Source: an uncultured virus (IMG/VR IMGVR_UViG_3300033821_000010) (lineage: Duplodnaviria > Heunggongvirae > Uroviricota > Caudoviricetes). Taken from it: 64,000 nt of DNA. This document shows, in pieces, positions 24,757 to 42,605 of the stretch. The DNA is taken from IMG/VR virus record IMGVR_UViG_3300033821_000010; one strand, written 5' to 3'. Position 1 is the first letter of the stretch. The number at the start of each line of letters is the position of its first letter. The position numbers and the translations under genes were made by a program. Below the pieces are notes generated by a model. The model made no database searches, was not told the DNA's origin, and saw only the letters and a program-made list of their open reading frames with translations.

Positions 24757-26232
24757 TTATTCTCCTTTGCTAAAATGCAATATCACTTCGTGTTCCGCGT
24801 CCTCTTTTGTAAGTTGCTTTCCTTGTTCTGCATATTCATCGGCTAAGCCCATTAAGAATGACGTTACTTTGCCGATGATTGGCCCTGCTTTTACGTTCAA
24901 AATCTGCATTATTTCATTGCCGTCAAGCACTGGTTTTTTGCCTACTTGAACAGGCGATTCTCTTATTTTCCTTACACGTTCCTTCAATTCAGGGACTCTA
25001 TTATTCACTGGTAAGCTACCTTTGGCATCTGCTTCTGCCAAATCCAACAAAGTATCCGCTAATTCGTCTCCCATTTCCCGAAGGAACTTGCGCAAAGACT
25101 TTTCACTTGCATCAAAAAGAGTCAAAGGGCGCATGTGATTTTCAACTAATTTTACTATCGTCTGAATCGTTTTAGCATCAAATTTCAGGCGATAGAGTAT
25201 GGCTTCGGCAATCTTAGCACCAGTTTCCGCATGACCGTGAAACTTGATTTCTTCACCAAGAATCTGTTGTGTGGCTGGCTTTCCAATATCATGTAATAAA
25301 GCCGCCATTTGACCTTCAATAGTGGGCGGTGCGTTTTTCAAGACCATCATTGTATGACGGAAAGCATTACCTTCGCTGTGATATTTAGGACTTTGTTCCG
25401 TCTTTTCAAGGTCCATGACTTCAGGCAGAATATACTGTAAAAGACCTGTTGCCTTCATCAACCTAATTGCTTTATGAAGTTTACCCAATGTCATTATCTT
25501 CTGTAATTCTCCCATAATGCGCTCGGCAGAAATTATCTTAATTCTATTAGCATTGCGTTTCACAGTATTAAGCACAGATATTGGTATTTTCCAACCATAT
25601 TTACAATAAAATCTTACGAGCCGCAGCATTCTTAGAGGGTCATCTGTGAAAATTTTATCCAATGAGACTTTTGGATGGCCGCGCAATATTCCTTCTTCAA
25701 TATCATGTTTGCTCACGCCCGTCATATCTAATACTTCACCAGTGCTTAAATCCTTCAAGAGCATATTTACTGTAAAATCTCTGCGCTCTATATCATCTTG
25801 AATCGTGCCAAATTCTGTTTTTCTTTGACGCGACATTTCATCAGGGAAACTTTCTTTCATTGTATCGGCAAACTCTATTATGGCTCCTTCGGTTTTGTAG
25901 ATTTCGTTCTTATAAGTGATATCTTCCTTAAAGGTGATTTGCCAAATAGGATAACCCGCCCCCATTTGATGTGGGTTGGTTACTGCCGGATAGAAAATCT
26001 TAGAGATGTAATGAGTTAGCTTTTCTGCTCCATCCTTCATTTCAACTACTACATCAAGGTCTTTGGCATCCAAGCCCATATGTTCATCTCTGTTATATCC
26101 ACCAACTGAGAATGTCTTACCGGCAAAAGATGTACCACTAAGAACAACTTTTAACAATCGTTCCACTTCCTTTTCAGCTTGTCCAGAAAGGATTGCTTTT
26201 GCTATTTTTTCTGTTATGTTGGCCAAAATCAT
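24757..26232 (-). CDS. cca: CCA tRNA nucleotidyltransferase (class II) with HD domain
   Basis: VGG..RD...KDLDV, DIERRDFTVN, DDPLRMLRLVRF, SAERI.GEL, H.EG....HT, LLHDIGK, FHGHAETG, ADAKG motifs. CCA versus poly(A) polymerase specificity is inferred from the HD fusion. Confidence 0.9.
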   Translation of the reverse strand: MILANITEKIAKAILSGQAEKEVERLLKVVLSGTSFAGKTFSVGGYNRDEHMGLDAKDLDVVVEMKDGAEKLTHYISKIFYPAVTNPHQMGAGYPIWQITFKEDITYKNEIYKTEGAIIEFADTMKESFPDEMSRQRKTEFGTIQDDIERRDFTVNMLLKDLSTGEVLDMTGVSKHDIEEGILRGHPKVSLDKIFTDDPLRMLRLVRFYCKYGWKIPISVLNTVKRNANRIKIISAERIMGELQKIMTLGKLHKAIRLMKATGLLQYILPEVMDLEKTEQSPKYHSEGNAFRHTMMVLKNAPPTIEGQMAALLHDIGKPATQQILGEEIKFHGHAETGAKIAEAILYRLKFDAKTIQTIVKLVENHMRPLTLFDASEKSLRKFLREMGDELADTLLDLAEADAKGSLPVNNRVPELKERVRKIRESPVQVGKKPVLDGNEIMQILNVKAGPIIGKVTSFLMGLADEYAEQGKQLTKEDAEHEVILHFSKGE

Positions 26233-26250
26233 ATCTAGACTCCGTTATTG

Positions 26251-26661
26251 TTATATGCTTCTTCTAATTTCTTCTAGTGTAAGGTCGTCTATTTTTCGAT
26301 GTTCTTCGTCAACATTTAAACGGCTCTCTGTAGACGTAATCCAATTTTTAGTCAATCTAATAATGCGCTTCAATTCAAATTGGAAATCATGTGGGAAAGC
26401 ATATTCAAACTCTTCAGTCTTAATTATGCTCCAACCCAATCCATGTTGAATGGCATAATCAATTTTCCAATCATGATGCCGCAAAACAATCATAACAATG
26501 CGATTATTGGGGAAGTCTTCGTAAATATACTTTGCTTCTTGTCTCATTGCCATACCACGTTGGAATTTCATATTACCGACAAAAAATGTCTCAGGGTAGT
26601 TAAGGTCAAAAGTAGTGGCAACAATGTTCTCCATTACCCTTTGAGCATTTATTTTACGCAT
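26251..26661 (-). CDS. Hypothetical protein with leader-like N-terminus
   Basis: 136 aa, GGAG RBS; begins MRKINAQRVMENIVA. Confidence 0.6.
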   Translation of the reverse strand: MRKINAQRVMENIVATTFDLNYPETFFVGNMKFQRGMAMRQEAKYIYEDFPNNRIVMIVLRHHDWKIDYAIQHGLGWSIIKTEEFEYAFPHDFQFELKRIIRLTKNWITSTESRLNVDEEHRKIDDLTLEEIRRSI

Positions 26662-26677
26662 ATGTATTCTCCCACCA

Positions 26678-29600
26678 TTATTCCAAATTTGAGTTTTCTA
26701 GAGCACTAAAAGCGTAGTCCAAGCTCTTCATAAGTTGTTGCTTGTTTAAGAAGACTGCATTGTTAAAAGCATCTGTAAAATATTCTTCCATATCGGCAAA
26801 AGCTTTATTATTACGCGAGATGAAATCTGTTCCTACACCTAATTTATCGTCAGTAAAAGTAATTACAAAATCAGAATCCCACCACTTTATATTCAAGTTG
26901 TTTCCATTAATAAACCATCTTAAATTTTTGTGCATGTGTTTATTGTTTTGAAGATAGTCAAGGGTAATTTCAATACCATCATCTTCATTAAAATTTTCTG
27001 ACGCTGTTTTTTCATCCTTGTTTTCCACAATTTCTCTTGTCTTCTGTTTAATCTGTTCCCGTGTCAAATTCACCACAGGAATAGGCAAGTCAAATATCAT
27101 AACTGTTCCAGCATCTTCTGCCAAGATAATTTGAATTGGTTGGGAGCCGCGCCTTGCTGTATAAATTTTTTGGTATTTTAAACTACCCCTTCTACAAAGA
27201 GATGCTTCTTTGTTCATAAGCCACTTTTTTTCTGAAGCAAGTAAAGGCCAAGCACCCAATTTTTTAATGATTGCTTCTGGGTTGGTTGCCTCACCATCAA
27301 TCACCTCCCAAAGTTGTTTCCATTCTTCATCTGTGAATTTTTTCTTCTCTATTTCAAGCTTTTTCTTTATCTCTTCAATACCTGCTTTTGTGTCAGAACC
27401 AGATTCTTGTATTATTTTAGAAGCTTGTTGGAAAGAAGCTCTGGCTGTATTGGTGATAAAATCCTTCATACCTTCATTAGTTGCACTGTCAATTGGTTCA
27501 TCGTCAATGCCGTCTATATTAAGCTGAACTCGCGATTTTCCCTGTTCACCAAAAATTGTGCTTCCTTTTGTGCCTTCAATTGCTTTGCCACCACCCATGT
27601 CTTTGGCAAAACCCTTGAATTTGTTAGCCGAAACTGCATCACCAAAAAGCATATCCACTGTATGACCTTCTGGTGAATATTTCATATCAACATTCATTGT
27701 GTTTTTATTTTTATCAAAAGCAAAACCTTTAAGTCTGCCACTATATCGGCTTAAAATGTCCTTTGTTGTATAGTCCATCATCTTACTCGTTTCATCAATG
27801 GACTTATGCAATAGTTCTTTATCAGAATCAACAATGTCATTATCACTATCAAGATGGTCGTGTAACTGACTTGTAATTTCCTTTTGTAAACCTTCATCTT
27901 TGGCATCTACAGCCATGCGTAGTTTACAAGCCAATTTCATAGCTTTGGGAGACTTGATGAATAAATCCTGAACCTTATCTTGTCCAAACAAAGCAAGATT
28001 ATCTGCTAGTCTTACAGATGAAGCAAGAGGGTCATTTTCCCAATCTAATTTTGGTTCATCGTGCGTTCTAACAATTTCCTTGAATTTGGCAGCAGAACCT
28101 TCACCAAAAATATGATTATATCTATCTTCTTCGGCACCTACAACAACAGCAGAATTATCTTTATGTTCGTTTCCACTACGAGCTTCAGTTGCTGCCTTGC
28201 CCAACGTATAACCAATATCATGGTTGGCTTGGATGCTCAATGCCATGAATTTATCTTTGCCAGTAACTTTAACACCAGATTTTTGTAACTGGTCTAACAT
28301 GGAAAGAGAATTTCTGGCATTGGCCGTAGCGTGACGAATACCATGGTCACCTAAAGAGCGACGTTTGGTTTCTGCTTCTTGATGTAACATTCTCTTTAAA
28401 TCTTCACGGATATATTCGTCTAAATCGGTTTGGCTAACACCCTCAAAAGAGCCGTCATTTAAACCTTCTTGAATAGAATTAAGCACATCATCTACATGAT
28501 TATTAACCATTTTATTTGTATGCTTGCTTAATATCTTGTCATAACGTTTCAGAACGCTACCAGTAGTTCCCTTTGTTTGTTTGATAAAATCCTTAATATT
28601 CGCTTTGGATACTTTTGATTTTTCTTTATTTTTTTCCTCTTTTACATCATCATCTGCTATGGTGTCCAAAGTTGTTTGAACATTTTTTATATATGTTTTG
28701 TGTACTTCTGCTGGTGGTTTACCTTTAACATCCGCATAATCAGACATACCTTTATGAGCAACCTCGCCTCTTTCCATAGCATCCGTCAATTGTTTCTTTG
28801 TGTTATCATCTAATTGACCATACTTCTTTTCAGAGCCATCGGGGAATTTAATTACAGTTTGAGGAGACAATTGGACCGGATTTAGTTTATGCGTATCCCA
28901 AGAATCGGAATCCGGTATGCCCATTTTTCCTATTTCTTCTCTCATCAAATTAGCTTGCTCTTCAGGTTTATATCCTTTTTGAAGTTTCATCATTTGAAGA
29001 GAGGGTTTCTTCTTAGGCTTATCTTTTAAGGCAGGAACTTTTCTGCCACTTTGAGGCTGCTGCTGTGGCGGTTGTTGCACAGGCTGTGGTTGTGGCTGCA
29101 CGGCTTGTGGTTGTGCTGGCTGTGGTGGTACAGGCTGCGCGGGCTGTTTTGGAACTGGCTGTGATTCTTTCCCCGGTTTCTTTTTCCCTTCTTCTGGCAC
29201 AGCAGAAGGTGGTTGACCCATTGGTCCTACAATATCTGTTACTGGAATTTGTTCCTCTTTTGGTTTTACATGATGCAAACTTTTATCAGCATCTGGATGT
29301 TCTTCCAAATAGTTTTCCAGTTCTTTCTTCGTATCAAAATCAATAGCCTGCCTTCGTCTTGTGGCTCTTACCACCGCAAGTCTAAGCTCAGCATCAACCG
29401 TAGTAGCAACTCTTTTCATGGTCTTCCCCGTATTAGAATCTACAAGATAAATTATTTGTTCTTCTTCGCACCATACAGGAATTATCCTAGCTTTCCATGC
29501 TTTCAAAACTAATTGAACCGGGTCATCAGTACCAAAGTATTGTTCTACAAACGGAAGATATTTGTTTTTATAGGCCGGTGTCACTTTCACGTTTTCACGA

Positions 29601-29701
29601 CGAATAGAATTGAACTTTTCCAACTCCAAATCAATAGTACACTGCTCACCACCGCAGTCTACATTATCAACCCAAGGCACAGCTTTTCGCATTCTACGCA
29701 T
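26678..29701 (-). CDS. Large multidomain protein: internal HPDADK module, Pro/Gln linker, HD phosphohydrolase domain
   Basis: 'QA-IDFDTKKELENYLEEHPDADKSLHH' near aa 120; HD motifs DHGIRH...NHDIGY...EH...RTHD...RLADN. Confidence 0.75.
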   Translation of the reverse strand: MRRMRKAVPWVDNVDCGGEQCTIDLELEKFNSIRRENVKVTPAYKNKYLPFVEQYFGTDDPVQLVLKAWKARIIPVWCEEEQIIYLVDSNTGKTMKRVATTVDAELRLAVVRATRRRQAIDFDTKKELENYLEEHPDADKSLHHVKPKEEQIPVTDIVGPMGQPPSAVPEEGKKKPGKESQPVPKQPAQPVPPQPAQPQAVQPQPQPVQQPPQQQPQSGRKVPALKDKPKKKPSLQMMKLQKGYKPEEQANLMREEIGKMGIPDSDSWDTHKLNPVQLSPQTVIKFPDGSEKKYGQLDDNTKKQLTDAMERGEVAHKGMSDYADVKGKPPAEVHKTYIKNVQTTLDTIADDDVKEEKNKEKSKVSKANIKDFIKQTKGTTGSVLKRYDKILSKHTNKMVNNHVDDVLNSIQEGLNDGSFEGVSQTDLDEYIREDLKRMLHQEAETKRRSLGDHGIRHATANARNSLSMLDQLQKSGVKVTGKDKFMALSIQANHDIGYTLGKAATEARSGNEHKDNSAVVVGAEEDRYNHIFGEGSAAKFKEIVRTHDEPKLDWENDPLASSVRLADNLALFGQDKVQDLFIKSPKAMKLACKLRMAVDAKDEGLQKEITSQLHDHLDSDNDIVDSDKELLHKSIDETSKMMDYTTKDILSRYSGRLKGFAFDKNKNTMNVDMKYSPEGHTVDMLFGDAVSANKFKGFAKDMGGGKAIEGTKGSTIFGEQGKSRVQLNIDGIDDEPIDSATNEGMKDFITNTARASFQQASKIIQESGSDTKAGIEEIKKKLEIEKKKFTDEEWKQLWEVIDGEATNPEAIIKKLGAWPLLASEKKWLMNKEASLCRRGSLKYQKIYTARRGSQPIQIILAEDAGTVMIFDLPIPVVNLTREQIKQKTREIVENKDEKTASENFNEDDGIEITLDYLQNNKHMHKNLRWFINGNNLNIKWWDSDFVITFTDDKLGVGTDFISRNNKAFADMEEYFTDAFNNAVFLNKQQLMKSLDYAFSALENSNLE

Positions 29702-30570: not shown

Positions 30571-33500
30571 TTACTCATCTTCCTCAAGAATGTCATCAGA
30601 GTCATAACCAAAAATTTCATTTACGTCAGAAGGACCACCATTTTCTGACTCACGAATTGCTGAAATGAGATATCTTCCAAAATGTGATTCATCATAAACA
30701 CTTGCTGCCTTAAAACCTTCTCCAATATTTTCACCTGTTGTGTCATCAATTATTGGTATGCCAGCTTCTTCCACAAAAGGGCTAATGCCTTTAGTTAGTT
30801 TCCCCATATAGTTTATTTTTGGACAAAGAATCGTTACATTTTCAGCACCACGTGTCATAGCCACATAAGCCAATCTACGTTCTTCATCTAGCGCACCTTT
30901 GTTGCCTTCATCATAAGATTTTTGAGCACCATAATAAGGGAATGTTCCTTTTGCCATACTTATGAAAACTTCCTTCTTTTCCAAACCCTTCCATTGATGC
31001 ACTGTGTCTATTTGTACCGCTGGCTCTGGATTGTCTTCGCCTTTAGCACCCTTTTCGTTTGCCTTCTTCATTTTGCGAATATATGACAAGCACTTTACAG
31101 GGTCTTGTTGGTTCTCTGCCATTCTGATAAGCGGTCTTAATGGCACCAAAGCCTTTCTCTTGATTTCTTCAGGGTCAGGTTTGTTACCTTCTTCGTCCAC
31201 ATCGTCAATATCCACGCTATCAACCAACATATCCATAAATGATATGAATTGTCCATCCACATCCTTTTTTGAACCTTTCATATCAATAATTTTTGTCATT
31301 ACGTCTTTAGAAGATATTTGTAGTGTCTTTGCATAACCAGTCAGTTCATCTATAGCGTCAAGGTATGCTTTAATGTTATTGGCTCTAAACCCTTGATTTG
31401 GATATGCAGCATTTGCCACGTCATTGAAATTCTTTTTCAAGTGGTCATAATAGTTCATGCCTTTTGGACATGTGCGTTCTACAGCACTAATGAATTCCTT
31501 GCCCAACCAAAATCCCGGTATTTCGTGAGCACTGAGAACGGCGTCATTGATTTCCTCATCAGCAATATCTCTTGAGCCAATAGAAGCTAATGTCATCCAT
31601 GAAGTCATGCCTTTTACTTTTTTATTGGCAAAGTAATTACTCTGTGACCTGTATGGAATCTCGCGGGCTATTAGAGCAGTCTGGAAAGCATCACGTTCTG
31701 CGTTATTTCTTACCAAAACTCCATAATCGTTTGGTGAAACTACTTTGGTGATGTCCACACTACTTTGTCCTGCCTTCGCTTCATCTAATGCTGCTTTGAT
31801 TTTATCAGCCGTCATTTCAGCACCAGATTCATGGTCTGATACCACCCGCGCTTCAATCTTTCCCGCTTGCTCTTTTCCAGGCTTTGATTTAGTAGGGAAG
31901 CGCAATGGGTCTGGCGCATTGTTGTTAATGAGCCGATTTGCCGCATCAAGAATTTTACCACCACAACGATAACTGGTGGAAATAGGCATGACTTTGTAAC
32001 CTTGGCCAGCAAGACCAGAGAATTTTTCCGGTTTAGCTCCACGCCAAGAATAAATGGCTTGATTCGGGTCACCAATATAAGTTACATCATCTGCCTTCTC
32101 GCCCAAAATATTAAACATCTCGTGTTGTACTGCATTCAAATCTTGCGCTTCGTCAATAAGAATAGCCTTGTATCTGGATTGTTCTGCATTCCTTGCTGTT
32201 GAATTTGTTTTCAGAATATCAACAGCTTTATTCAACCAATCGTTGTAATCATATACCGGGCCTTCTGGATTGTGCTTTTTCAGCCAATCATAAGCACCAT
32301 ACGCAATGGCCGCAATGTATTCCATCGTGCCTTCTGAAGATGCCGTTACAAATTCTGTTTTGGCTTGTTCGGCACTCATTCCTCGATTGGCAATATTATC
32401 CATCGCGGTCTTAATCATTCTTGTACCAACAATCTTATTTCCTGCTTCATCTTTCAATTTGATGCCCATATTAAACCATTCATTAACCGGCTGTTTGTAC
32501 CACTGATTGATATTGCTGCCACCTTGTTGCTGATACTGTTTCTTAGGATAACCACCTCCATAACCACCTTTATTTTTGTAGCCATATCCCCATGCCGCAT
32601 AAGTGCTCTTTTTCATCTGTATCTGTGCAATAGCAATATCAGAAAGTTTAGAAATCAGGTATTTATCCGTCCTTTTTTTTGCATCTTTTTCAGCCGGTGT
32701 TCCATGTGCCGTGATAATATCGCCAGCCACATGATGTGTCGTGCCTATCTCTGCACCATGAAGACCAAATTTTTCTGCACGAGCTTTCATCTCTAGAGTA
32801 GCTTTTTGAGTAAATGTAGTAGCTAAAATCTGTTCTGGCCTAATACCTTTATCTTTTGTCAGATAAGAAAGTTTGGCAATTACGACGCGCGTTTTCCCGC
32901 TTCCCGCTGCGGCAGCAATCACTGACCTTCCACGCGCCAACATAGCAGCACTTTGTTGGTCATCTAATCCAAAATCTTCAGCCGTTTTATTGATAGGCTC
33001 TTTGGCAAGATTTGTTACCACGCTCGTTAGAACAGCTTGTGGAGCTTTTGAACTTGCTGCCACTTCCTCTACTTGCTGTAATAATGCTTTTTTCTCTTCT
33101 TTTAATTCAACACCTTCGGGCGTCATCGGGTCTGTCACTGGTATTCGTGTCTGTACTTCTTTAATCTTATCACCAATAGCTTGACCCGTTTCAGCATCAG
33201 CCAAAACGCTCTCGGTTGTGCTGATAGGCACTTCAGCCAATTCCGCCGCCGTTTCTATCCACTTGCGAGATATGTTCATGCCAGAAACACTAGGAATGGA
33301 TGCTGCTTGATTCAGTCTGGCTTGTGGTGAGTCTTCCAACACCATAAGCATAAGTTTCTGTGCCACTCGTAAAGACCGTGATACAAAGATTTCCTTCGCC
33401 TTGTCAGTGTGTGATTTCATCCAACGGAACATTTCAACACATAAGTCAGCACTATTAGTTACTTTGTCTTCAACAGAGCCACGTAACGCTCTCATATAAT

Positions 33501-33753
33501 AGGGTCTAAGTCTTGGTGCGTGTTCCAAAAGAGGTTCTACAAATTGTGTCAGAGATGCTTCAAAACCGCCCATATAACGCCGGTAAAGCAAAATGCCTTT
33601 ATGTAGATGTACATCTGAAGTAGTAGGTTTGCCAACAGTTTGCAGATATTTCATATAAGCGTCACAAGCTACGCATAATACAGCCATGTCTGCTAATCTG
33701 TCGGGGTCCGCTTCGATTGCTGGATTTCTACCGGCAACAATAATTTCACTCAT
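30571..33753 (-). CDS. uvrD: UvrD/PcrA/Rep-family SF1 helicase with N-terminal extension
   Basis: AAAGSGKT, ATTFTQKA, LIDEAQD, GDPNQAIYSWRGA, SYRC, LVRNN, TVHQWKGLE, EERRLAYVAMTRG. Confidence 0.92.
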   Translation of the reverse strand: MSEIIVAGRNPAIEADPDRLADMAVLCVACDAYMKYLQTVGKPTTSDVHLHKGILLYRRYMGGFEASLTQFVEPLLEHAPRLRPYYMRALRGSVEDKVTNSADLCVEMFRWMKSHTDKAKEIFVSRSLRVAQKLMLMVLEDSPQARLNQAASIPSVSGMNISRKWIETAAELAEVPISTTESVLADAETGQAIGDKIKEVQTRIPVTDPMTPEGVELKEEKKALLQQVEEVAASSKAPQAVLTSVVTNLAKEPINKTAEDFGLDDQQSAAMLARGRSVIAAAAGSGKTRVVIAKLSYLTKDKGIRPEQILATTFTQKATLEMKARAEKFGLHGAEIGTTHHVAGDIITAHGTPAEKDAKKRTDKYLISKLSDIAIAQIQMKKSTYAAWGYGYKNKGGYGGGYPKKQYQQQGGSNINQWYKQPVNEWFNMGIKLKDEAGNKIVGTRMIKTAMDNIANRGMSAEQAKTEFVTASSEGTMEYIAAIAYGAYDWLKKHNPEGPVYDYNDWLNKAVDILKTNSTARNAEQSRYKAILIDEAQDLNAVQHEMFNILGEKADDVTYIGDPNQAIYSWRGAKPEKFSGLAGQGYKVMPISTSYRCGGKILDAANRLINNNAPDPLRFPTKSKPGKEQAGKIEARVVSDHESGAEMTADKIKAALDEAKAGQSSVDITKVVSPNDYGVLVRNNAERDAFQTALIAREIPYRSQSNYFANKKVKGMTSWMTLASIGSRDIADEEINDAVLSAHEIPGFWLGKEFISAVERTCPKGMNYYDHLKKNFNDVANAAYPNQGFRANNIKAYLDAIDELTGYAKTLQISSKDVMTKIIDMKGSKKDVDGQFISFMDMLVDSVDIDDVDEEGNKPDPEEIKRKALVPLRPLIRMAENQQDPVKCLSYIRKMKKANEKGAKGEDNPEPAVQIDTVHQWKGLEKKEVFISMAKGTFPYYGAQKSYDEGNKGALDEERRLAYVAMTRGAENVTILCPKINYMGKLTKGISPFVEEAGIPIIDDTTGENIGEGFKAASVYDESHFGRYLISAIRESENGGPSDVNEIFGYDSDDILEEDE

Positions 33754-34295: not shown

Positions 34296-35006
34296 TTATA
34301 CAGTAGTACCTAGAGTCTTATCTGCGAAAGCCTTAGCTTCATCATAAGACCATATATAACGAGTCAGACTTGGGGAATCAATAGTGCCCAAATCACTATT
34401 GTCATGTTCTTCATCTTTATGCATCCCTATATGTTCATAGAAAGAGTTTGACCCTTCATCAGAACGTAGCTCTAATTTATCGCCCTTTTCCACATAGCTA
34501 CGAATTGCCTCTGCTATTAAACGTTTCCCAATGCCTTTTGTGCCAGCTTTTGTGCCAAGAGCATTGATTTTTACATAGGATTTTTCTTCGCTTTCATCCC
34601 AACGATTGCGACAACTAATCGCGCCTAAAAAAGCATCTCCCTCTTTTATTATCTTGCCTTTGTAGTCTTGGTCTTCATCACCATATTCATAAGTATTTTC
34701 AAAGATGTTTTTCAATGCTTCTTCTGCCATTGAACCGCGATTTCCTTTCCATCCTTCTCCTTCAAGTTGTTTGGCCAATCCTTTTGCTAGTTTGCCTTTC
34801 TGCCTTTTATCAATCTCAATAGTCTTGTGCTGCGCTGGTAAACTTTTTTGTGGTGCTGACTTGGTTTTTACCACTCTATGATTTCTTTTGTCAGCGTCTG
34901 GATGTTCTTTCAAATACTTCTTCATGGCTTCATCAGTAGGAAAGTCTATAGCTATTAAACTCTCAGCCACCTTCAAAAGTTCTGAGGCTATAAATTTTCT
35001 ATTCAT
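34296..35006 (-). CDS. Leader + HPDADK module protein with C-terminal GNAT acetyltransferase
   Basis: MNRKFIASELLKVAESLIA-IDFPTDEAMKKYLKEHPDADKRNH; GNAT motif A 'INALGTKAGTKGIGKRLI' and 'NSFYEHIGM'. Confidence 0.75.
   Translation of the reverse strand: MNRKFIASELLKVAESLIAIDFPTDEAMKKYLKEHPDADKRNHRVVKTKSAPQKSLPAQHKTIEIDKRQKGKLAKGLAKQLEGEGWKGNRGSMAEEALKNIFENTYEYGDEDQDYKGKIIKEGDAFLGAISCRNRWDESEEKSYVKINALGTKAGTKGIGKRLIAEAIRSYVEKGDKLELRSDEGSNSFYEHIGMHKDEEHDNSDLGTIDSPSLTRYIWSYDEAKAFADKTLGTTV
34906..34973. repeat. 68-nt exact direct repeat, copy 1 (leader/module junction)
   Basis: Identical to 37987-38054. Confidence 0.9.
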
Positions 35007-35017
35007 CTTAAAAGTCC

Positions 35018-36223
35018 TTAATTATATTTAATTCCAGCTTTTTTAAGCATAGCCTCTAGTTCTGGTGTTCTGCTATTCTTGTTCGCAAACCTAACTTCTT
35101 CAATATCATTTAATGTTACACCGCCATGTATTTGTGCTTCAAAATAACTCTTGCTACCCTTGCCACTCATTCCTAAACTAGTTCCCTTACCTGATTCTAC
35201 GTCTTTTTGTGTTTTGGTTTCTGCCAATTGATATATAGGAATACATCTTGAATCAGCTTCGTCTAACTGTTGTGGCAGACAAGATATTGAAAGCAATCCT
35301 TTGGATGGATTTTTAGCATTTTTGAAAGCAGCCGTGTCTAACGAATCACCAAACGTACAAGTTGTTCGTCTTCTGAGACTGTCTTTCAATTTTATTACAA
35401 TACCACCATATTGGCCAGCTTCATCACCTTTCTTCTTTGATAGATAACCATATATAGGACGTTCTGCTGGTTTTTCATTATCAGGAGTGCTAAACAAATT
35501 TTTTTCTATTACTCTCCTGGCTTCTTGATTTTCTAAGGCACCAGAAGTATGGGTTTCAATTTGTGTCTTAAATCGTTGGTCTTTGAGAATTCCTAAAAGA
35601 CCCTTTGTTGTAGTCCTGTGATAGATAGAAGTAGAACTTACATACTTTTTTACGCTGGTATCCAATACTTCTTTATATTTAGCTGGCACCATTTTTTTAT
35701 GTTTTGCACCTATCTCTAAATAGTCTCCATATCTATCTGACAAAAACTTATCCCATTGTTTTGCTGGTTTAATACTTGTCTTAGTGGATTCTTGTTTGTG
35801 TGTCTGTTGTGGTTTAGTTTTTACTACTCTATGATTTCTCTTATCGGCATCAGGGTGTTCTCTGAGATACTTCTTCATCGCTTCATCAGTTGGAAATTCA
35901 ATGGCCAATAAGCTCTGAGCTACCTTCAAAAGTTCTGAGGCTATGAACTTATTTAAAATCTTGCCTTTCTTGGTATAGAATTCCACACCCAAATAATCAT
36001 CAGTCCTTCCACTCCACATTACATGATATTGCGGGAATTCTTCTTCTATTAAAGCAAAAACAAAATCATACGCATCATTCTCCAACAAACCTTCTGTGGC
36101 CTTTGTTTGTACCATAGAAGTACGGTCAATAGCAAGATAATCATGCCTAAGAAACGTTGACTTGATGCCATGCCGTCTCAAAAATTCATGACACGGTTTT
36201 AATGGTTCAATAGTTGGAGACAT
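35018..36223 (-). CDS. Protein with internal leader + HPDADK module and C-terminal DUF3626-like (ADP-ribosyltransferase-like) domain
   Basis: NKFIASELLKVAQSLLA-IEFPT...HPDADK at about aa 90-130; ERPIYGYL, QYG, RTTCTFGDS and YFEAQIHGGV.L.DIE match my recollection of DUF3626. Confidence 0.7.
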   Translation of the reverse strand: MSPTIEPLKPCHEFLRRHGIKSTFLRHDYLAIDRTSMVQTKATEGLLENDAYDFVFALIEEEFPQYHVMWSGRTDDYLGVEFYTKKGKILNKFIASELLKVAQSLLAIEFPTDEAMKKYLREHPDADKRNHRVVKTKPQQTHKQESTKTSIKPAKQWDKFLSDRYGDYLEIGAKHKKMVPAKYKEVLDTSVKKYVSSTSIYHRTTTKGLLGILKDQRFKTQIETHTSGALENQEARRVIEKNLFSTPDNEKPAERPIYGYLSKKKGDEAGQYGGIVIKLKDSLRRRTTCTFGDSLDTAAFKNAKNPSKGLLSISCLPQQLDEADSRCIPIYQLAETKTQKDVESGKGTSLGMSGKGSKSYFEAQIHGGVTLNDIEEVRFANKNSRTPELEAMLKKAGIKYN

Positions 36224-36227: not shown

Positions 36228-36716
36228 TTAGAAGTCCTGCTCTGGATTAAGCGGCGGTTGAAATCTAGGCAACATAGTCCGAAGACGAGATTTCATTTCC
36301 TGACCAAATATTCTTTCATTAAATCTAATCAATCTGAAAAGTGCTTTTTGAGCTTTTGTAAGATACTCTTGTGCAGCTTCTTGTAAATTTGGTTCGTTTC
36401 CTTGAAATTCTGATGATAACAACATTCCCGCCGATTTGTAGAGAGCCACTTCACGTACATTACCTGGAAAAACCGATATCGTAGTTCCATCAGCACGAGT
36501 TAAATTATAAGGTTTTATAGGTGTATAATATAAATCTGAAAGCTGCTCGTCAAGGTCACGGTCTACACGTTCACAATAGCCACAGACCATTTCTTGTGTT
36601 ATTTTAGACAACTTACCTTCTCCAATATTAATGCTTCGGCATATAGCCCTGATGGCTTCAGTCGCAGCCGGTCCAGCATAATAAGGCTGATTAGTTGTTG
36701 GTGAAATGTCTGGCAT
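36228..36716 (-). CDS. Putative head-tail connector/adaptor protein
   Basis: 162 aa helical; 'ERVDRDLDEQLSDLYYTP...PGNVREVALYKSA' resembles gp6/gp15-like adaptors. Confidence 0.5.
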   Translation of the reverse strand: MPDISPTTNQPYYAGPAATEAIRAICRSINIGEGKLSKITQEMVCGYCERVDRDLDEQLSDLYYTPIKPYNLTRADGTTISVFPGNVREVALYKSAGMLLSSEFQGNEPNLQEAAQEYLTKAQKALFRLIRFNERIFGQEMKSRLRTMLPRFQPPLNPEQDF

Positions 36717-36756
36717 AATATCATTCCCTCTTACCGTTTCTATAGTAGCTAATTAT

Positions 36757-36796
36757 AAAAAAAATATCCCTTGCTACTCCAAAAATGCAAGGGATA
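36757..36796 (-). terminator. Rho-independent terminator overlapping putative late promoter
   Basis: Stem TATCCCTTGC/GCAAGGGATA (36765-74 / 36787-96) followed by T8 on the minus strand. Confidence 0.75.
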
Positions 36797-36821: not shown

Positions 36822-37271
36822 TTATCGGTCTTCTGGACGTGTGGTATGTCTGTCTAAAAAGTTCCACACCGAACCAGGAATTTCGTCCCTTACTGCTGTG
36901 TCAAGATTATCAAAGAGTTTAATAGCACCTTTATAATCTTTCTTCTTCATAAGGTCTAAACCCTTCCTCAAATCCTTCACATCGTCTTCATACATCTTCC
37001 TGAATTCTTTTTCATCCTTATCATCATCTTCATACTTTCGGTCAACCCACTTCTTTTTATATTTCTGTACCGCCTTATCCATTTTATCTACGTGTTCATT
37101 ATGCTTTTCAGGAGTTGCTGTAGGAATAGGTTTTTTAAACCTATGATTCCTCTTGTCTGCCCCAGGATGCTCTTTCAAATACTTATCCAAAGCATCTTTA
37201 CTAGGAAATTCAATAGCTAACAAGTTCTGTGCTACTTTAAGAAGTTCCGACGCTACTAATTTTTTGTTCAT
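36822..37271 (-). CDS. Leader + HPGADK module protein, acidic/basic helical cargo
   Basis: MNKKLVASELLKVAQNLLA-IEFPSKDALDKYLKEHPGADKRNH. Confidence 0.75.
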   Translation of the reverse strand: MNKKLVASELLKVAQNLLAIEFPSKDALDKYLKEHPGADKRNHRFKKPIPTATPEKHNEHVDKMDKAVQKYKKKWVDRKYEDDDKDEKEFRKMYEDDVKDLRKGLDLMKKKDYKGAIKLFDNLDTAVRDEIPGSVWNFLDRHTTRPEDR

Positions 37272-37274: not shown

Positions 37275-37655
37275 CTACCCTTTCTTTGTTTTAGTGTTTT
37301 CGTACACCACAAGTAATTGACCTAAATAAACAGCCGCTTCCTTTGGAGTAGGATTGTCTAATTCTAATTTCAACCCGGCGTTTAATACATCTCTATTGGA
37401 TAAACCGCTCACATCATATTCAACTTTGATAGCAGCACCTACATAATGGATAATATAAGCTATCACCTTTTTACTGCCTTTGGGACTTATCTCATATTTG
37501 TGTACTCTGGCGAATCTATCAAAATTAAATTTGAGATTTTTTGATGCTAATTGTTGTACTGTCACCACAAAATCTTGGAACTCTTGTTCGGATACTTCAG
37601 CAACCAGTGATTTTGCTAGTTTCAAAAGTTGTGAAGCTATCTTTTTGTTGTCCAT
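37275..37655 (-). CDS. Leader-family hypothetical protein
   Basis: MDNKKIASQLLKLAKSLVA; GGGAG RBS. Confidence 0.75.
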   Translation of the reverse strand: MDNKKIASQLLKLAKSLVAEVSEQEFQDFVVTVQQLASKNLKFNFDRFARVHKYEISPKGSKKVIAYIIHYVGAAIKVEYDVSGLSNRDVLNAGLKLELDNPTPKEAAVYLGQLLVVYENTKTKKG

Positions 37656-37667: not shown

Positions 37668-38087
37668 TTATCTTCGTATCTCACCCAACCACCGCTTTCC
37701 TCCACTGCCCCAAGTCGTAAAACCAAGACTTCTAAGATAGTCTGTTTGGGCATTTGTGGAGTCTTCTGGTACTTCTATAATCGTTTGTACACCAGCTTTT
37801 TGAGCAGGTTGTTTGCCAAATATCGTTTCTTTCTCTTCAGTAGCCTTCCAATGATGTTCCTCTATCTTCACTCCCTTTGGCAATTTACTCTTGTCTATAA
37901 CACTAGGAGCTTGTTTATGCGCTTTAGCTGATTCTGTTTTCTCTGTCTTCACTACTCTATGATTGCTCTTGTCAGCATCCAGGTGCTCTTTCAAATACTT
38001 CTTCATGGCTTCATCAGTAGGAAAGTCTATAGCTATTAAACTCTCAGCCACCTTGATTAGTTCAGCCGCTACTTTTCTCTTATTCAT
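37668..38087 (-). CDS. Leader + HLDADK module protein
   Basis: MNKRKVAAELIKVAESLIA-IDFPTDEAMKKYLKEHLDADKSNH. Confidence 0.75.
   Translation of the reverse strand: MNKRKVAAELIKVAESLIAIDFPTDEAMKKYLKEHLDADKSNHRVVKTEKTESAKAHKQAPSVIDKSKLPKGVKIEEHHWKATEEKETIFGKQPAQKAGVQTIIEVPEDSTNAQTDYLRSLGFTTWGSGGKRWLGEIRR
37987..38054. repeat. 68-nt exact direct repeat, copy 2
   Basis: Identical to 34906-34973. Confidence 0.9.
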
Positions 38088-38091
38088 GATT

Positions 38092-38403
38092 TTAAGCATC
38101 TTTCATTCTGCGTGCTTGCCGTATCCCTATCACCTTATCTGTTAATCCGCTGAGTTGCTTCACTTCAATATCCGGTATCTTCGCTAATCTTCTAGCTATT
38201 AGTTCCGTTTCTTTATCACCGGCCTTATGCACCACTATCATGTCATATTTGCGAGCCTCATTTGAATGTTGCTCACCAAACTTACCACCTAAAACAAGAG
38301 CCTTTTTGCCAAAGACAGTCTTCACTTCTTGCCGTACAGCCGCAATCAGCTTCTCAGACCGTATCAAAGCCCCTATGTCAGATAACTCTTTCTTGATGTC
38401 CAT
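38092..38403 (-). CDS. Hypothetical protein
   Basis: 103 aa, AAGGGAAG RBS, promoter-like motif at 38434-38460. Confidence 0.6.
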   Translation of the reverse strand: MDIKKELSDIGALIRSEKLIAAVRQEVKTVFGKKALVLGGKFGEQHSNEARKYDMIVVHKAGDKETELIARRLAKIPDIEVKQLSGLTDKVIGIRQARRMKDA

Positions 38404-39577
38404 ATATCACTTCCCTTCGCCGGTTTGTGCTCTCTATTCTACTGTCATCTATAAAGAAATTGTTAATAGCTACTGGTACTTGTTTGTGCTCTTTCTCAAA
38501 TTCAGCCCAATTTTCCAATGTCGTAAACTTCCCAAACCTCTCATGTATCTTTTTGTGGCATGAATCACACAAAGCAACACCATTCTCTACATCACACCTT
38601 AACTCCCTAAACATGCTGTAATTTTGCTTGTGATGTGCTTTGATACCACCTTCCCTGCCACTACATATCCGGCAGCAATAATTGTCTCTCTTATACACTG
38701 CATCCCGCCACTCCACATAAGCCGGATTCAAATTTCTATGCTTATCGCCCCACCTGTCTTCATCAGTCAGATTTTTATTCCATCGGGGATGCTTTTCACG
38801 CCTTCGTTCCTTCTTCAAATCTCTATCAAAACAACCACAAGATTTTGTATGACCCATGTTTAGTACATTGGTGGTACATTTAATCATCTTCCCACATTCG
38901 CATTGACAATCCCAAATATAAGCATTGCCGTTTGAATGACTGAAGGAAATAACAGTCAACCTACCAAACTGTTTACCTATTATTTTTTGTTTTATTTGGC
39001 TGAACTTAACACAGCCGCAATCCTTAGTATCGTGAGTCAAGCTTTCTCTGGTATAGGTTGACACCTCACCGCAATCACATTTACATTCGTAGTGCTCGTT
39101 ATCTATCAATTTTGTAACCAGCAATTGACCAAACCTTTTACTAGTCAAGTCATCTAAATTGGTTTTTTTGTTAGGGTCGGAATTCAACCTCTCTGCATTT
39201 TTTCTTCTCGTTTCAATAGCAAGACAACCACAAGATTTTGTATTACCGCTTTTCAAAGAGCCATACGGAATTTCAACTTTTTTGCCACAATCACATTTAC
39301 ATTCCCAAATTGTTTGTCCTTTGTTCCAATCTACTCTTTGTATAGCTGTTAATCTACCAAATTTCTTTCCAACAATATCCCTTACCATTTTGTGTTCGCG
39401 TTTTAAGCAACCACAAGACTGAACTTCGTTATCTCGTAAATGATGTCTCATAACACACGCTATGTTACCACAATCGCATCTGCATAGCCAGACATAATGA
39501 TTCCCTTTTTTGGAATGCTTTTCTATCACCGTCATTTTGTTAAACCGTTCGCCCGTAAGGTCAATAAATGCGCTCAT
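38378..39577 (-). CDS. HNH homing endonuclease with four CxCxCG/xCGC repeats
   Basis: DLTGERF..LT...WxCxCDCG...SCGC x4; C-terminal RDNYCCRIC...AHH...NGVALCDSCHKKIH. Confidence 0.85.
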   Translation of the reverse strand: MSAFIDLTGERFNKMTVIEKHSKKGNHYVWLCRCDCGNIACVMRHHLRDNEVQSCGCLKREHKMVRDIVGKKFGRLTAIQRVDWNKGQTIWECKCDCGKKVEIPYGSLKSGNTKSCGCLAIETRRKNAERLNSDPNKKTNLDDLTSKRFGQLLVTKLIDNEHYECKCDCGEVSTYTRESLTHDTKDCGCVKFSQIKQKIIGKQFGRLTVISFSHSNGNAYIWDCQCECGKMIKCTTNVLNMGHTKSCGCFDRDLKKERRREKHPRWNKNLTDEDRWGDKHRNLNPAYVEWRDAVYKRDNYCCRICSGREGGIKAHHKQNYSMFRELRCDVENGVALCDSCHKKIHERFGKFTTLENWAEFEKEHKQVPVAINNFFIDDSRIESTNRRREVIYGHQERVI

Positions 39578-39644
39578 AAGTTATACTTATCCTTGTATTA
39601 GTTTTAATAATATCATTGTTGTTTCTATTCTTGTAAGTCCTTTA

Positions 39645-40415
39645 CTACAAATACTTTGTCGGTTTCCATCCGCGAAGCTTGCCATAGCCCTGCACATTGT
39701 GCACCCCGCTGCGGCCAAATCCTCTTATGGCCTGATAGTAAAACACAGTAGGTTTAGCAAGAGTAGGAGGAATCTTAAACTTCTCATTTGTGATAGCTTG
39801 GTTGGCTCTTTCTTCTGCGTTTTGTTTCAGAGTATCAAGAGCGCCGGTAATATCACCACCACCATCTTCCAGAGCTTGGGCACCGATAGCAAAAATGAGT
39901 CTACCGTACCACAGGTCATATTCCAATAAGAGCTTTTCGATACAGAGGGCGAAGGCAAGGTCGGCGAGAACACCATCCCAATATTGAGGGGCATCGTTAA
40001 TTGTGTAATTTGTAGCTGGACCGAAGGCGTTAGTATTGATGAAATCAACGGCTTGTCTAATAAAACCTTCTAGTGTAGCGATACCGAAGTAATCAATGCT
40101 GTAGGTGAGGTTACAAGTATCTCCGGTGGTAACAGAACCAAATTGGAAAGTAGCGTGGGCATAATCTATATTAACGATTTGTGGAGTAGGAATCATAGCT
40201 TTGTTTTTATGGCAAACTAATGGGTACGTGGGGTTCCAATTACCATAATGGACTTGCCACGTAACACCGTCTGGCATCAAGAGGGCAGGTTCATCGAAGA
40301 TAGTGACTTGCCGGAAAGCGAGCAAGCGTGGGGTGAGGTAAGTATCCACGATGTAATTGATTCTGGAAGTGGTGGATAATCCTATTGGAACGTATGAGCC
40401 GGGGAAGACTGCCAT
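39645..40415 (-). CDS. Putative neck / head-tail adaptor protein
   Basis: 256 aa; 'FIRQAVDFIN...PATNYTINDAPQYW' resembles large-phage neck proteins; strong AAGGAG RBS. Confidence 0.5.
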   Translation of the reverse strand: MAVFPGSYVPIGLSTTSRINYIVDTYLTPRLLAFRQVTIFDEPALLMPDGVTWQVHYGNWNPTYPLVCHKNKAMIPTPQIVNIDYAHATFQFGSVTTGDTCNLTYSIDYFGIATLEGFIRQAVDFINTNAFGPATNYTINDAPQYWDGVLADLAFALCIEKLLLEYDLWYGRLIFAIGAQALEDGGGDITGALDTLKQNAEERANQAITNEKFKIPPTLAKPTVFYYQAIRGFGRSGVHNVQGYGKLRGWKPTKYL

Positions 40416-40478
40416 GGTATTTCTCCTTGTTAGAGACGCTTACTGAAGAAAGCATCTCTTCTATAAGTAGGGGAGTAT

Positions 40479-40517
40479 AAAAAAAATATCCCGTGCTGTT
40501 TTTAAGAGCACGGGATA
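40479..40517 (-). terminator. Rho-independent terminator overlapping putative late promoter
   Basis: Stem TATCCCGTGCT/AGCACGGGATA followed by T8; homologous to the 36757-36796 terminator. Confidence 0.75.
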
Positions 40518-40540
40518 GGTTTGTTCAATTAAAAAAATTG

Positions 40541-40921
40541 TTACTTTTTCAAAACCCAATCCAATTCACCACTTTTTGATTCCCGTTCAAATTTATCTCT
40601 CATATATATAGCCACTTCTTTACGTACTGATGTTGGGAAATTAGTAGGACCACCAGTTGAACTACTGAATTCCTTGAAGTACATCTTACCACCTTCATCT
40701 GTCAAATATTGGAACAGTTTGACGGCCATATTTGAGTCGTAGACATCCTTCTTCTTTTTAAGCATGAGATTTTTATAGATAGGAATAAGTCTATTGCGAT
40801 AGAGTTGGCCACTATTGTCAATATACATAAATAGTTCACCACCATCTTCCGAAAGGCCAGTAATAGCCGTCATTTTCTTGGCAATTTTCAGCAATTCAAC
40901 AGCTATCTTTTTCTTATTCAT
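40541..40921 (-). CDS. Leader-family protein with conserved phage-type domain
   Basis: MNKKKIAVELLKIAKKMTA then 'ELFMYIDNSGQLYR...PIYKNL...YD...AVKLF'. Confidence 0.7.
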   Translation of the reverse strand: MNKKKIAVELLKIAKKMTAITGLSEDGGELFMYIDNSGQLYRNRLIPIYKNLMLKKKKDVYDSNMAVKLFQYLTDEGGKMYFKEFSSSTGGPTNFPTSVRKEVAIYMRDKFERESKSGELDWVLKK

Positions 40922-40939
40922 TGTTGTTCCTTTCAAACT

Positions 40940-41581
40940 CTAATCCCACCAAACTCTGATTTCTGCATTTAACATATCATCATTTTGAAGTGGATATGAG
41001 CGCGATTTACTGCTCAAAGATATACTAATATTTTTGCTTCCTGAATTTAGATATAATTCATTTGGCTTTAATCTCTGCGCAGACGTTAAAATTTCATCTG
41101 CTTCTTCCTTACTTTTAAAGCCTTTTATATAGATGCAAGGACTATATTCTCTTGCCCACCTGAATTGATATTGACTGAATGCTCGTATAAATCTATTTAC
41201 TTGGGCTTCATCAAAACTTCCATTATAACCATCAGGCAAAGCTTTTTGAAGTATGTCAATGGCTGTGCTGGCATTGACATATTTGCCATGATAGAACATT
41301 ACACCTTCTTCATCACTGAAAGCTTTGATTGTTTCTCCAATTAGTCCACCGGGTTGTTTTTCTCTTTCGTCTTCAATAGTTCGTTTGACATCTTTGGTTA
41401 GGCTGGCTATGGCATATTCCAAGGCATACCAGTCACCATTATTTTTTTCAATTTTTTCTATTATTTTATTGATACGTTCTAGTTCTTTTTTGACAGAATT
41501 GATATAGTCTTGTTTGGTAAATTCGCCTATAATTGACTTCGCTAGTTTCGTCAAATGTTCAGCTATTTCTTGGCGTTTCAT
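40940..41581 (-). CDS. Leader-family hypothetical protein
   Basis: MKRQEIAEHLTKLAKSIIG; AGGAG RBS; ends in RVWWD. Confidence 0.7.
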   Translation of the reverse strand: MKRQEIAEHLTKLAKSIIGEFTKQDYINSVKKELERINKIIEKIEKNNGDWYALEYAIASLTKDVKRTIEDEREKQPGGLIGETIKAFSDEEGVMFYHGKYVNASTAIDILQKALPDGYNGSFDEAQVNRFIRAFSQYQFRWAREYSPCIYIKGFKSKEEADEILTSAQRLKPNELYLNSGSKNISISLSSKSRSYPLQNDDMLNAEIRVWWD

Positions 41582-41619
41582 AACAATCTCCTACTACTAA
41601 TAATTAGTATATACTCCAA

Positions 41620-41919
41620 TTATAAAGCATTGTTTATTTCGTGTTGTACTCTATCAAGAAAATCTTTTAATGCGCTTATTTTGTCGTTAATGGTTGTTAG
41701 ATATTTTGGAGCTTCGATATGTCCCGAACCAACTTTGTCTAATCCTGTAATATCTTTATTTGCCTGTTCGAATGCTTCTTCTACAGCTTTGGCTTTTTTA
41801 GCAATTTCGTTTGAAATAAACTTGGAACCTTTTATCATATTATAAGCTTTATCGTTATCAGTAGCCACTAACTCTTTTGCCAATTTCAATAGTTTAACTG
41901 CTGTGTCTTTGTTTGCCAT
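41620..41919 (-). CDS. Leader-family small helical protein
   Basis: MANKDTAVKLLKLAKELVA. Confidence 0.7.
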   Translation of the reverse strand: MANKDTAVKLLKLAKELVATDNDKAYNMIKGSKFISNEIAKKAKAVEEAFEQANKDITGLDKVGSGHIEAPKYLTTINDKISALKDFLDRVQHEINNAL

Positions 41920-41963
41920 GGTTTGTTACCCCTTCCGCTACTTTCCTATACTTTCCCCTGCCA

Positions 41964-42605
41964 TTAGATAACCAAAATTAAAATTTTTGTGTCATCGCTC
42001 TGTCCATCTATATCAAAAGTCGGGAAACCTGTCTTGATTTTACTTGGCCTATAATACATACCTGTTGGCGTTTTACTACCTTTATAATCCAAACGTTTCA
42101 AGTGCATGAAAAATTCGTTCAGACTTGTTCTCACATTAGGGTCTTGCTTAGATAGTTCCCAAGCAAAGCGAGCGTGAGGGTGAGTAGACTTTTTGACACC
42201 GGGAACTTTCTCTAAAAGGTCTATCACCATCAAGAAGTTCTTTTCTCTTTCGGCAGCTTCGTTTTGGAGCCTTTGTTTATCTTGTTCTCTTCGTTCTCTG
42301 AGTAGATTGTGGTACTTATTGGCAATAGCGATAGTTTCTGGTGTTGGTGATTCAAGGACTTTCTTTACCGGGAGAATTATGTGATAAACTTTCTTGTGGT
42401 GTTTCTGGTCAAAGAGGTAACCATTGCCGATGTAGATGCCTGTGATGGTTAGATTACCAAGCAATTGAGCCAAATCTGTAACGGCCACACCTTCAGCCTG
42501 TACTGTCGAGCCAAGTTCTGGTTCAACTGATGCTTTCTTAACATCATCATGGAGAAGTGAACGAGCCAATGAAATCAATTGTTTAGCTACTAATCGTTTC
42601 TCCAT
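41964..42605 (-). CDS. Leader-family hypothetical protein
   Basis: MEKRLVAKQLISLARSLL. Confidence 0.7.
   Translation of the reverse strand: MEKRLVAKQLISLARSLLHDDVKKASVEPELGSTVQAEGVAVTDLAQLLGNLTITGIYIGNGYLFDQKHHKKVYHIILPVKKVLESPTPETIAIANKYHNLLRERREQDKQRLQNEAAEREKNFLMVIDLLEKVPGVKKSTHPHARFAWELSKQDPNVRTSLNEFFMHLKRLDYKGSKTPTGMYYRPSKIKTGFPTFDIDGQSDDTKILILVI

Follow-up and report, generated by a model that had tools for sequence, protein, structure and literature searches.

A shared terminal helix and an HPxADK mini-domain on unrelated proteins of an uncultured jumbo phage: a candidate head-docking tag

Encapsulins and microcompartments dock cargo inside a protein shell, which in encapsulins has the HK97 fold, by means of short peptides located at either end of the cargo protein and joined to it by a flexible linker. 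In phage T4, a capsid targeting sequence (CTS) of 10-20 residues, which is removed by gp21, stands at the N-terminus of the internal proteins IPI-III and of Alt; it is common to unrelated proteins, among them an ADP-ribosyltransferase, and brings them into the prohead, from which they are ejected together with the DNA (PMC7411985). For the phiKZ-like phage SPN3US, the same source describes ejection proteins with N-terminal propeptides that are cut after AXE, and it gives propeptide lengths of 64 residues for the protease, where the propeptide is C-terminal, and of 111-130 residues for head proteins (PMC7411985). In the MuF and polyvalent proteins, a head-associated constant part is combined with interchangeable effectors (ADP-ribosyltransferase (ART), HD, ParB-like and others) predicted to be injected, and the genes have portal and late genes in their vicinity (Iyer et al. 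2017, PMC5512222). Here we analyze a 64,000-nucleotide stretch (the window) of the uncultured caudoviricete genome IMGVR_UViG_3300033821_000010 from IMG/VR, in which a 19-residue amphipathic helix (hereinafter the leader) is present on nine minus-strand genes between 34.3 and 42.6 kb. By analogy, the pattern matches the logic of the T4 CTS, the SPN3US propeptides and the MuF/polyvalent effectors: a terminal helix, a linker and exchangeable cargo, encoded in relatives beside portal, protease and capsid genes, together point to a T4 CTS-like or MuF-like logic.

Eight of the nine leaders start at residue 1 of the respective proteins (gene starts 35006, 37271, 37655, 38087, 40921, 41581, 41919 and 42605), and the ninth is internal, at about residue 90 of the product of the 35018-36223 gene. 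A hidden Markov model (HMM) of the leader scored the nine copies at 30.6-38.9 bits, compared to 6.9 bits for the best of the 1,037 other open reading frames (ORFs) of at least 30 amino acids in the six frames of the window, which bears out the claim of the original prediction, made from the sequence alone, that at least eight genes have a common amphipathic leader. In a leave-one-out analysis, all nine withheld copies outranked every non-family ORF, two of them marginally (6.7 vs 5.0 bits for the 41581 gene and 9.2 vs 5.3 bits for the 42605 gene). With a mostly external model, built from 62 sequences (60 from outside the window) and the five leader-only copies, the nine window copies scored 20.3-35.3 bits and the next ORF 2.4 bits. 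Across the two classes of carriers, the model of the five leader-only copies recovered the four leaders that belong to modules (see below) at 16-24 bits, and the model of these four recovered two of the five leader-only copies (21 bits) and missed three. The "weaker versions" of the leader previously proposed for the CCA enzyme and for the 26661 and 30554 genes had to be dropped because they drew no score from any leader HMM tried; the 30536 site was touched solely by a loose regular expression and by no HMM. The leader, described as usually ending in Ala, ends in His in the 42605 gene.

Conservation of the leader acts on the peptide and not on the DNA: the 80 nucleotides 5' of the leader-gene starts do not align, and the Ala codons vary among the copies, so that the peptide is kept through synonymous changes. 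These observations led us to reject a DNA- or RNA-level repeat, or a common promoter, as the source of the conservation. A secretion signal (Sec, Tat or lipoprotein) was rejected as well, given that charged residues occur every 3-4 positions of the helix and the longest hydrophobic run is three residues, whereas such signals have an unbroken hydrophobic core of about 7-15 residues behind a basic N-region.

Four of the leader copies run on into an HPDADK motif, and AlphaFold, provided with 62 and 79 aligned sequences, predicts that the leader and the motif fold as a single compact domain of approximately 48 residues (helix 3-17/18, strand 21-22, helix 25-34 and strand 44-45 within residues 1-48), with pLDDT of 91-97 within a full 149-aa protein and a mean of 90 for the domain alone. 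Positions M1, A14, F22, Y31, H35 and H43 of this module are invariant and A7, E9, L10, A27, P36, A38, D39 and V45 nearly so, the polar HPxADKxxH stretch being the best-conserved section. All five proteins for which the signature I(D/E)F...YL.EH(P/L).ADK..H had been reported do align, but the copy in a 1007-aa protein is preceded only by a degenerate helix. Comparison of the module to Pfam produced only sub-threshold chance matches (MHB, HrpK1, CP12), NCBIfam yielded none, and in PHROGs the module proteins of the window were unmatched apart from DUF3626 cargo. The best E value in a profile search of PDB sequences was 0.03, a Foldseek search of PDB with the whole 149-aa model returned nothing at E<=1e-3, and a wide VIA fold search with this model matched only the C-terminal helices (Z<=6.8). 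The domain-only model reached a best Z of 3.0 in fold libraries and a best E of 0.89 in BFVD; for a predicted domain of about 50 residues, such fold searches would show neither novelty nor kinship. A literature search for the motif strings of the module found nothing relevant, and a broader one on targeting peptides yielded reviews only. Judged by sequence, then, the module is a putative adaptor domain that is new and previously undescribed, with no family in Pfam, NCBIfam or PHROGs.

Cleavage of the leader after Ala, another element of the original prediction, is unsupported: because the leader and HPDADK fold as one domain, a cut at this position would split a folded mini-domain in the module proteins (pLDDT 90-97). 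The junction [A/G/S]-x-[D/E]-F is conserved in the modules, with Asp as frequent as Glu, and is missing from the leader-only proteins. Were the leader cut off at all, the better candidate site would be the [A/G/S]-x-[D/E] junction, two residues past Ala; provided that the tagged proteins are packaged, we consider cleavage at or near this junction possible, though rather doubtful.

The proteins that carry the tag in the window, all encoded on the minus strand, differ in everything that follows it, with a best pairwise BLASTP E value of 0.028 between the downstream parts, as had been claimed. The gene at 34296..35006 encodes a 236-aa protein in which the leader and HPDADK mini-domain (aa 1-48) is followed by a linker and GNAT cargo (Pfam Acetyltransf_10, E 2.4e-7; leader HMM 38.9 bits). 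The 401-aa product of 35018..36223 consists of an N-terminal domain of about 90 aa, the internal leader with HPDADK (DNA 35786-35956) and DUF3626 cargo (Pfam DUF3626, E 5e-10; phrog_8314, E 1.8e-14); the Pfam matches thus agree with the GNAT and DUF3626 labels assigned earlier. We rejected the possibility that this internal leader marks a missed start, the preceding codon being TTA, which is not a start; a relative, P0139, has the same N-domain and an internal leader without Met. Two smaller module proteins are a 149-aa protein at 36822..37271, with an HPGADK mini-domain and a helical C-terminal part (AlphaFold residues 1-50, pLDDT 91-97; H3-17, E21-22, H25-34, E44-45), and a 139-aa protein at 37668..38087, counted from the ATG at 38087 (the ORF extends to 38099), with an HLDADK mini-domain and identical to the database representative P0019.

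The five leader-only proteins are a 126-aa protein at 37275..37655 (leader HMM 37.5 bits), with no Pfam, PHROG or NCBIfam match; another of 126 aa at 40541..40921, counted from the ATG at 40921 (31.1 bits); one of 213 aa at 40940..41581 with the weakest leader copy (32.5 bits; 6.7 bits when left out), for which a homologue search retrieved only the protein itself; one of 99 aa at 41620..41919 (31.3 bits; 15.3 bits when left out); and one of 213 aa at 41964..42605, the leader of which ends in His (30.6 bits; 9.2 bits when left out). Finally, alignment with the other HPDADK copies places a core-only HPDADK at aa 117-146 (DNA about 29264-29353) of the 1007-aa protein encoded at 26678..29701. The HD label once given to this protein could not be retained: no HD family was detected at E<=0.01, the Pfam scan yielded no family at all, and an HD_4-bearing relative has only the HPDADK stretch in common with it.

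An HMM scan for the module and for cargo diversity, which the original prediction had proposed, revealed a sizeable family. Searching 1.84 billion proteins with a profile of the five window copies, we identified 1,164 cluster representatives with varied cargo at E<=1e-3, 283 of these at E<=1e-10. The best 150 relatives contain 208 domain matches, of which 148 include the leader and 60 are core-only; among the leader-bearing copies, 87 begin with the first residue of the protein, another 5 begin no more than 15 residues into it, and 56 are internal, 24 of which retain a Met-x-x start-like triplet. Two to four copies are present in 47 of the 150 proteins. The median member is 213 aa long, and most members are small and carry a single cargo. 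For the 145 of these 150 relatives that were scanned, the cargo identified by Pfam includes ADPrib_exo_Tox, ART-PolyVal (two proteins), Zeta_toxin, Topoisom_I, HD_4, Ferritin, ChaB and MORN, with no Pfam family for most of the proteins. Together, the Pfam and BLASTP results uphold the claim of a common tag on unrelated cargo and show effector-type enzymes on the same module elsewhere. No MuF or other known adaptor family is listed in the tagged window proteins (Pfam, NCBIfam) or in the 145 relatives (Pfam). A tblastn search of 50,697 phage records with two module proteins produced no match, and in 185,579 species genomes the module is nearly absent, with only 6 weak partial matches, in metagenome-assembled genomes, indicating that the family is neither prophage nor bacterial.

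The gene neighborhoods of the relatives place the module in the head region. In nine of the ten viral contigs with a full module, a full-module gene is adjacent to or no more than 1.2 kb from the prohead protease gene, which fits head loading; the remaining contig is a 6-kb fragment. The gene order in this region is portal, module and protease, scaffold-like protein, and major head protein, with the protease assigned to phrog_18299 (E 2.5e-12 to 1e-8) and the major head protein to phrog_2522 (E about 1e-52). Core-only forms are encoded directly after the portal gene or between the portal and protease genes in five more contigs (L006/L049, L033, L037, L050 and L055); among these, the homologue of the 1007-aa protein (L006:5782-8085, 41% identity, E 7e-169) comes right after the L006 portal gene (phrog_16240, E 2.3e-17). 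The major head protein of the module contigs shares 37% identity with its counterpart in Bacillus phage G and 48% (in L020) with that of the cultured Tunturiibacter phage Tunturi_5, in which the genes upstream of the protease gene are annotated "DNA ejection protein" and "virion structural protein", with one hypothetical gene between. In six of the relatives (L020, L025, L026, L027, L028 and L029), the major head proteins are 92-93% identical, and the tagged proteins and most neighbors are far more diverged. Phage G (L059, record 5000-40000) itself encodes several proteins with a recurrent MKRLIKK-like N-terminus around its portal and capsid genes (e.g., locus 6938, 11056, 23219 and 30182), which may be this phage's own common leader.

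The bare helix behaves as a terminal tag as well. Leader-only gene arrays like that of the window are found in L020/L021 and L029, with four or five such genes after the capsid gene in L020, and the helix is terminal in 19 of the 22 distinct leader-only matches of the related loci: 14 lie at the N-terminus and 5 at the very end of small ORFs, 2 are internal and 1 is a stand-alone ORF. Four of the five C-terminal helices belong to an acidic protein encoded between the protease and the scaffold. Although all six frames were searched, the 31 leader matches are all on the coding strand. In the leader-only protein L020:18780-19184, the match to phrog_3308 begins at residue 42 and at profile position 2, so that the cargo family matches without the tag. 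The stand-alone ORF (L030:3958-4131) would encode a mere 27-residue peptide that consists of the leader helix and nine further residues. A second, two-helix tag with a PELR motif, identified in other large viral contigs, behaves alike: its 23 distinct matches are N-terminal or at the far C-terminal end, and some stand immediately in front of the HPxAD core. This tag is present in L037 and L055, two related loci in which the capsid protein is 70-71% identical to that of L020; the comparison, which covers two classes, hints that the tag type co-varies with the head lineage.

Set against the described systems, the leader is like the T4 CTS in being a short sequence that recurs, mostly at the N-terminus, on otherwise unrelated proteins of a single phage (eight of the nine copies start at residue 1), and in the location of its genes, among head genes in relatives (nine of ten contigs) and next to a Mu Gp36-like connector gene in the window. 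Unlike the CTS, the leader has 19 residues with no sequence likeness to the T4 sequence, occurs also internally, in tandem and at C-termini, and has no uniform cut motif; about half of the window copies are part of a folded 48-residue domain, whose first helix they form. The likeness to SPN3US consists in a jumbo phage with many head-internal proteins, in propeptides at either end that are proposed to direct proteins into the prohead, and in the AXE cut motif, to which the [A/G/S]-x-[D/E] junction of the module is similar (PMC7411985); the propeptides described there are long and not a common short tag, and the capsid lineage is here phage-G-like. With the MuF/polyvalent proteins the system has in common a constant part combined with interchangeable effectors (GNAT and DUF3626 in the window; ART in three cases, Zeta_toxin, Topoisom_I, HD_4, Ferritin and ChaB in relatives), including the ART-PolyVal domain of two module relatives, but the adaptor is tiny and its carriers are mostly small, single-cargo proteins and not giant multidomain ones. 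Encapsulin cargo, too, bears short terminal tags, and a ferritin-like protein is among the tagged ones (P0027, L002:1967-4837); encapsulins and microcompartments are cellular compartments with other sequence motifs. The L002:1967-4837 protein, of about 960 aa, is encoded upstream of the prohead protease gene, with two genes between, and its near-twin P0027 contains two HPxADK cores; the ferritin-like domain brings to mind the ferritin-like cargo of encapsulins.

The reading we favor, although with a probability somewhat short of even, is that of a head-docking tag or adaptor that loads polymorphic, probably ejected cargo. The short amphipathic helix, either alone or as the first helix of the 48-residue helix-strand-helix-strand mini-domain ending in HPxADK, would be a docking tag at the end of the protein, by which a varying set of proteins is drawn into the head during assembly. 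A flexible Lys/Glu/Pro-rich linker would join it to the cargo: GNAT, the DUF3626 enzyme and unknowns in the window, and ADP-ribosyltransferases, a zeta-toxin kinase, topoisomerase IB, HD and ferritin proteins in relatives. From what is directly shown, namely the tag, the predicted fold of the domain, the modular cargo and the family genes beside protease, portal and capsid genes in relatives, we infer that the tag binds some part of the head, be it the capsid protein, the scaffold or the portal, and that the tagged proteins are packaged and ejected; on this view, the cargo would travel inside the capsid and reach the host along with the DNA.

Several observations weigh against head docking. 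The leader-only proteins have no conserved cleavage motif after the helix, and in the AlphaFold models the leader is packed into the folded mini-domain and so need not be a free peptide. Of the leader-bearing copies in the best 150 relatives, 56 of 148 are internal, and 47 of the 150 proteins have multiple copies. The profile found no module in phage G, Tunturi_5 or LR745208 despite the relatedness of their capsid proteins, so that the module is not a core part of head assembly. L022, L030 and L031 carry module genes also at a distance from the head module, and at most of the distant core-only loci no head genes were detectable with the queries used, some of these loci adjoining ligase, methyltransferase or transposase genes. 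In the 64-kb window itself, tblastn and phmmer searches with the proteins of the relatives as queries detected no portal, protease, scaffold or capsid homologues.

Part of this evidence would be accommodated by a cytoplasmic function, in which the helix or mini-domain is an oligomerisation or hub tag that gathers diverse phage enzymes in the infected cell, with one another or on a common hub of phage or host origin, for example a replication or takeover factory, and nothing is packaged. The heptad-like hydrophobic stripe of the leader helix, with the invariant small residues A7 and A14, would suit such a role, as would the many proteins with 2-4 copies, the module genes outside head modules (those of L022, L030 and L031, and of L003-L013 near ligase, methyltransferase or transposase genes), and the presence of a UvrD helicase and a CCA enzyme in the same island of the window. 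However, neither the helicase nor the CCA enzyme has the tag, the full-module gene abuts the protease gene in nine of ten contigs, and the same helix forms the C-terminus of a head-module protein; we regard the hub as unlikely.

We assign a still smaller chance to the alternative that the tagged proteins are components of the head core or scaffold, with [A/G/S]-x-[D/E]-F as a prohead-protease cassette, so that the pieces are degraded and expelled at maturation. Multi-module proteins are encoded directly beside the protease in L025, L026 and L001, the scaffold-like protein of L020 contains a leader-like helix, and the junction fits the AXE-type motif reported for SPN3US (PMC7411985). Nevertheless, enzymes such as ART, zeta toxin, topoisomerase and GNAT make little sense as cargo to be discarded, a separate conserved scaffold-like protein is encoded in 7 loci, and the leader-only proteins do not have the junction.

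That the basic mini-domain (invariant His35/His43, conserved Asp39) and the Lys-rich linker bind phage DNA and escort it with no capsid receptor appears improbable. The linker that follows the module is indeed richer in Lys (15.8%, against 12.7% overall) and in Pro (7.2%, against 4.4%), and it is the polar HPxADKxxH stretch that is most conserved; yet no likeness to DNA-binding families was found in Pfam, NCBIfam, PDB sequences or fold libraries, and the leader-only proteins retain the helix without the HPxADK part. Plain paralogy, with the N-terminus as the slowest-diverging remnant of local duplication and no address function, is the least credible explanation: the tagged genes are clustered and the 73-84% DNA identity of the four full modules over 143 nucleotides points to recent duplication, but the cargo parts belong to different Pfam families or show no similarity, the tag precedes different cargo in other phages and is found also at C-termini, and the leave-one-out and cross-class models recover both classes.

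Head docking might also take a more elaborate form, to which we give a low probability: a lineage-specific, two-part terminal address code of uncultured jumbo phages, made up of a docking helix at either end of a protein and an HPxADK partner module that acts in cis or possibly in trans, with a tag type that co-varies with the head lineage. Under such a code, the leader-only proteins would complete the core-only modules on large hub proteins, in an internal network that loads dozens of polymorphic enzymes (ADP-ribosyltransferases, zeta-toxin kinases, topoisomerase IB, ferritin and acetyltransferases) into the capsid to be injected together.

The window represents part of the genome of an uncultured jumbo phage. 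All of its long ORFs are on the minus strand; PHROGs and Pfam searches identified collagen-like tail fibres at both ends, a 2,220-aa tape-measure-like protein and a minor tail protein, along with homing endonucleases, a CCA-adding enzyme, a UvrD helicase, NUDIX and ATP-grasp proteins. Megablast did not find a close phage, and a related contig, IMGVR_UViG_3300045118_000047, encodes homologues of the window genes 44283, 43962, 42725, 23754, 22403 and 19025 in the same order (E 2e-64 for 23754, 7e-51 for 22403 and 8e-73 for 19025). CheckV estimates that this and four more module contigs are 21-50% complete at 44-125 kb, which identifies the module contigs as jumbo-phage fragments. From the DUF5659 block (42.7 kb) to a conserved 189-aa gene (24.3 kb) the distance is approximately 18 kb in the window compared to approximately 8 kb in the relative, so that the tagged genes lie in a variable island just upstream of the tail genes.

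Within this island, the tagged genes had been described as interleaved with connector-like genes. This holds for the 162-aa protein at 36228..36716 (minus strand), which resembles Phage_Mu_Gp36 (PF07030) in an Atlas structure comparison (TM 0.69/0.68 over 131 residues); the 256-aa viral protein at 39645..40415 (minus strand) is a lead as a possible head-tail adaptor, its nearest Atlas clusters (Gp19/Gp15/Gp42, SU10 adaptor and gp6-like connector) scoring 0.86-0.89, under the bar of 0.9. Both genes are preceded by an AT-rich, putatively promoter-like motif in two exact minus-strand copies, at 36754..36770 (5' of the 162-aa gene) and 40476-40492 (5' of the 256-aa gene), for which the chance expectation in the window is 0.8 at <=3 mismatches. 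A 16-nt motif identified in a motif scan of the window lies within a 26-nt direct repeat at 41934..41949 on the minus strand (repeat to 41959), 5' of the 41919 gene, with further copies 5' of the 42605 gene at 42633-42648 (exact; repeat to 42658) and 42678-42693 (2 mismatches; repeat to 42703); the window contains 6 matches at <=3 mismatches vs 0.82 expected. Promoter-like motifs thus precede both connector-like genes and the leader genes 41919 and 42605, but not every leader gene, as had been implied. The 26-nt direct repeat family might be a regulatory or promoter element distinct from the AT-rich connector motif.

Between the neck and tail genes, the window also encodes the CCA-adding enzyme with an HD domain (24757-26232) and the UvrD-type helicase, which is extended by about 230 aa at its N-terminus (30571-33753), both without the tag. 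Genes for tRNA-Leu(taa) and tRNA-Arg(tct) are located further upstream (49495-49571 and 56056-56134), and a GT10 fucosyltransferase-like gene among the tail genes, with R2K-clade ATP-grasp and NUDIX hydrolase genes in the upstream region (21423-22388, 48629-49522 and 51072-51617). Three homing-type endonuclease genes (38378-39577, 43028-44005 and 20537-21346) are inserted in the structural and tagged-gene region, two encoding HNH proteins with repeated Cys-rich modules (phrog_374) and one a LAGLIDADG/MerR-HTH protein. In relatives, inteins break the portal gene of L006 and the protease gene of L002 (Hint and LAGLIDADG by Pfam); judging by their length (752-754 aa), the protease genes of L020 and L025 are probably interrupted by inteins too.

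Whichever reading holds, the 48-residue domain merits a family entry. If the tag loads the head, it would provide a sequence rule by which the injected arsenal of a large group of uncultured jumbo phages could be read from metagenomes, flagging candidate host-takeover and anti-defence enzymes among otherwise unannotated proteins, and a small portable handle to pack chosen proteins into phage capsids.

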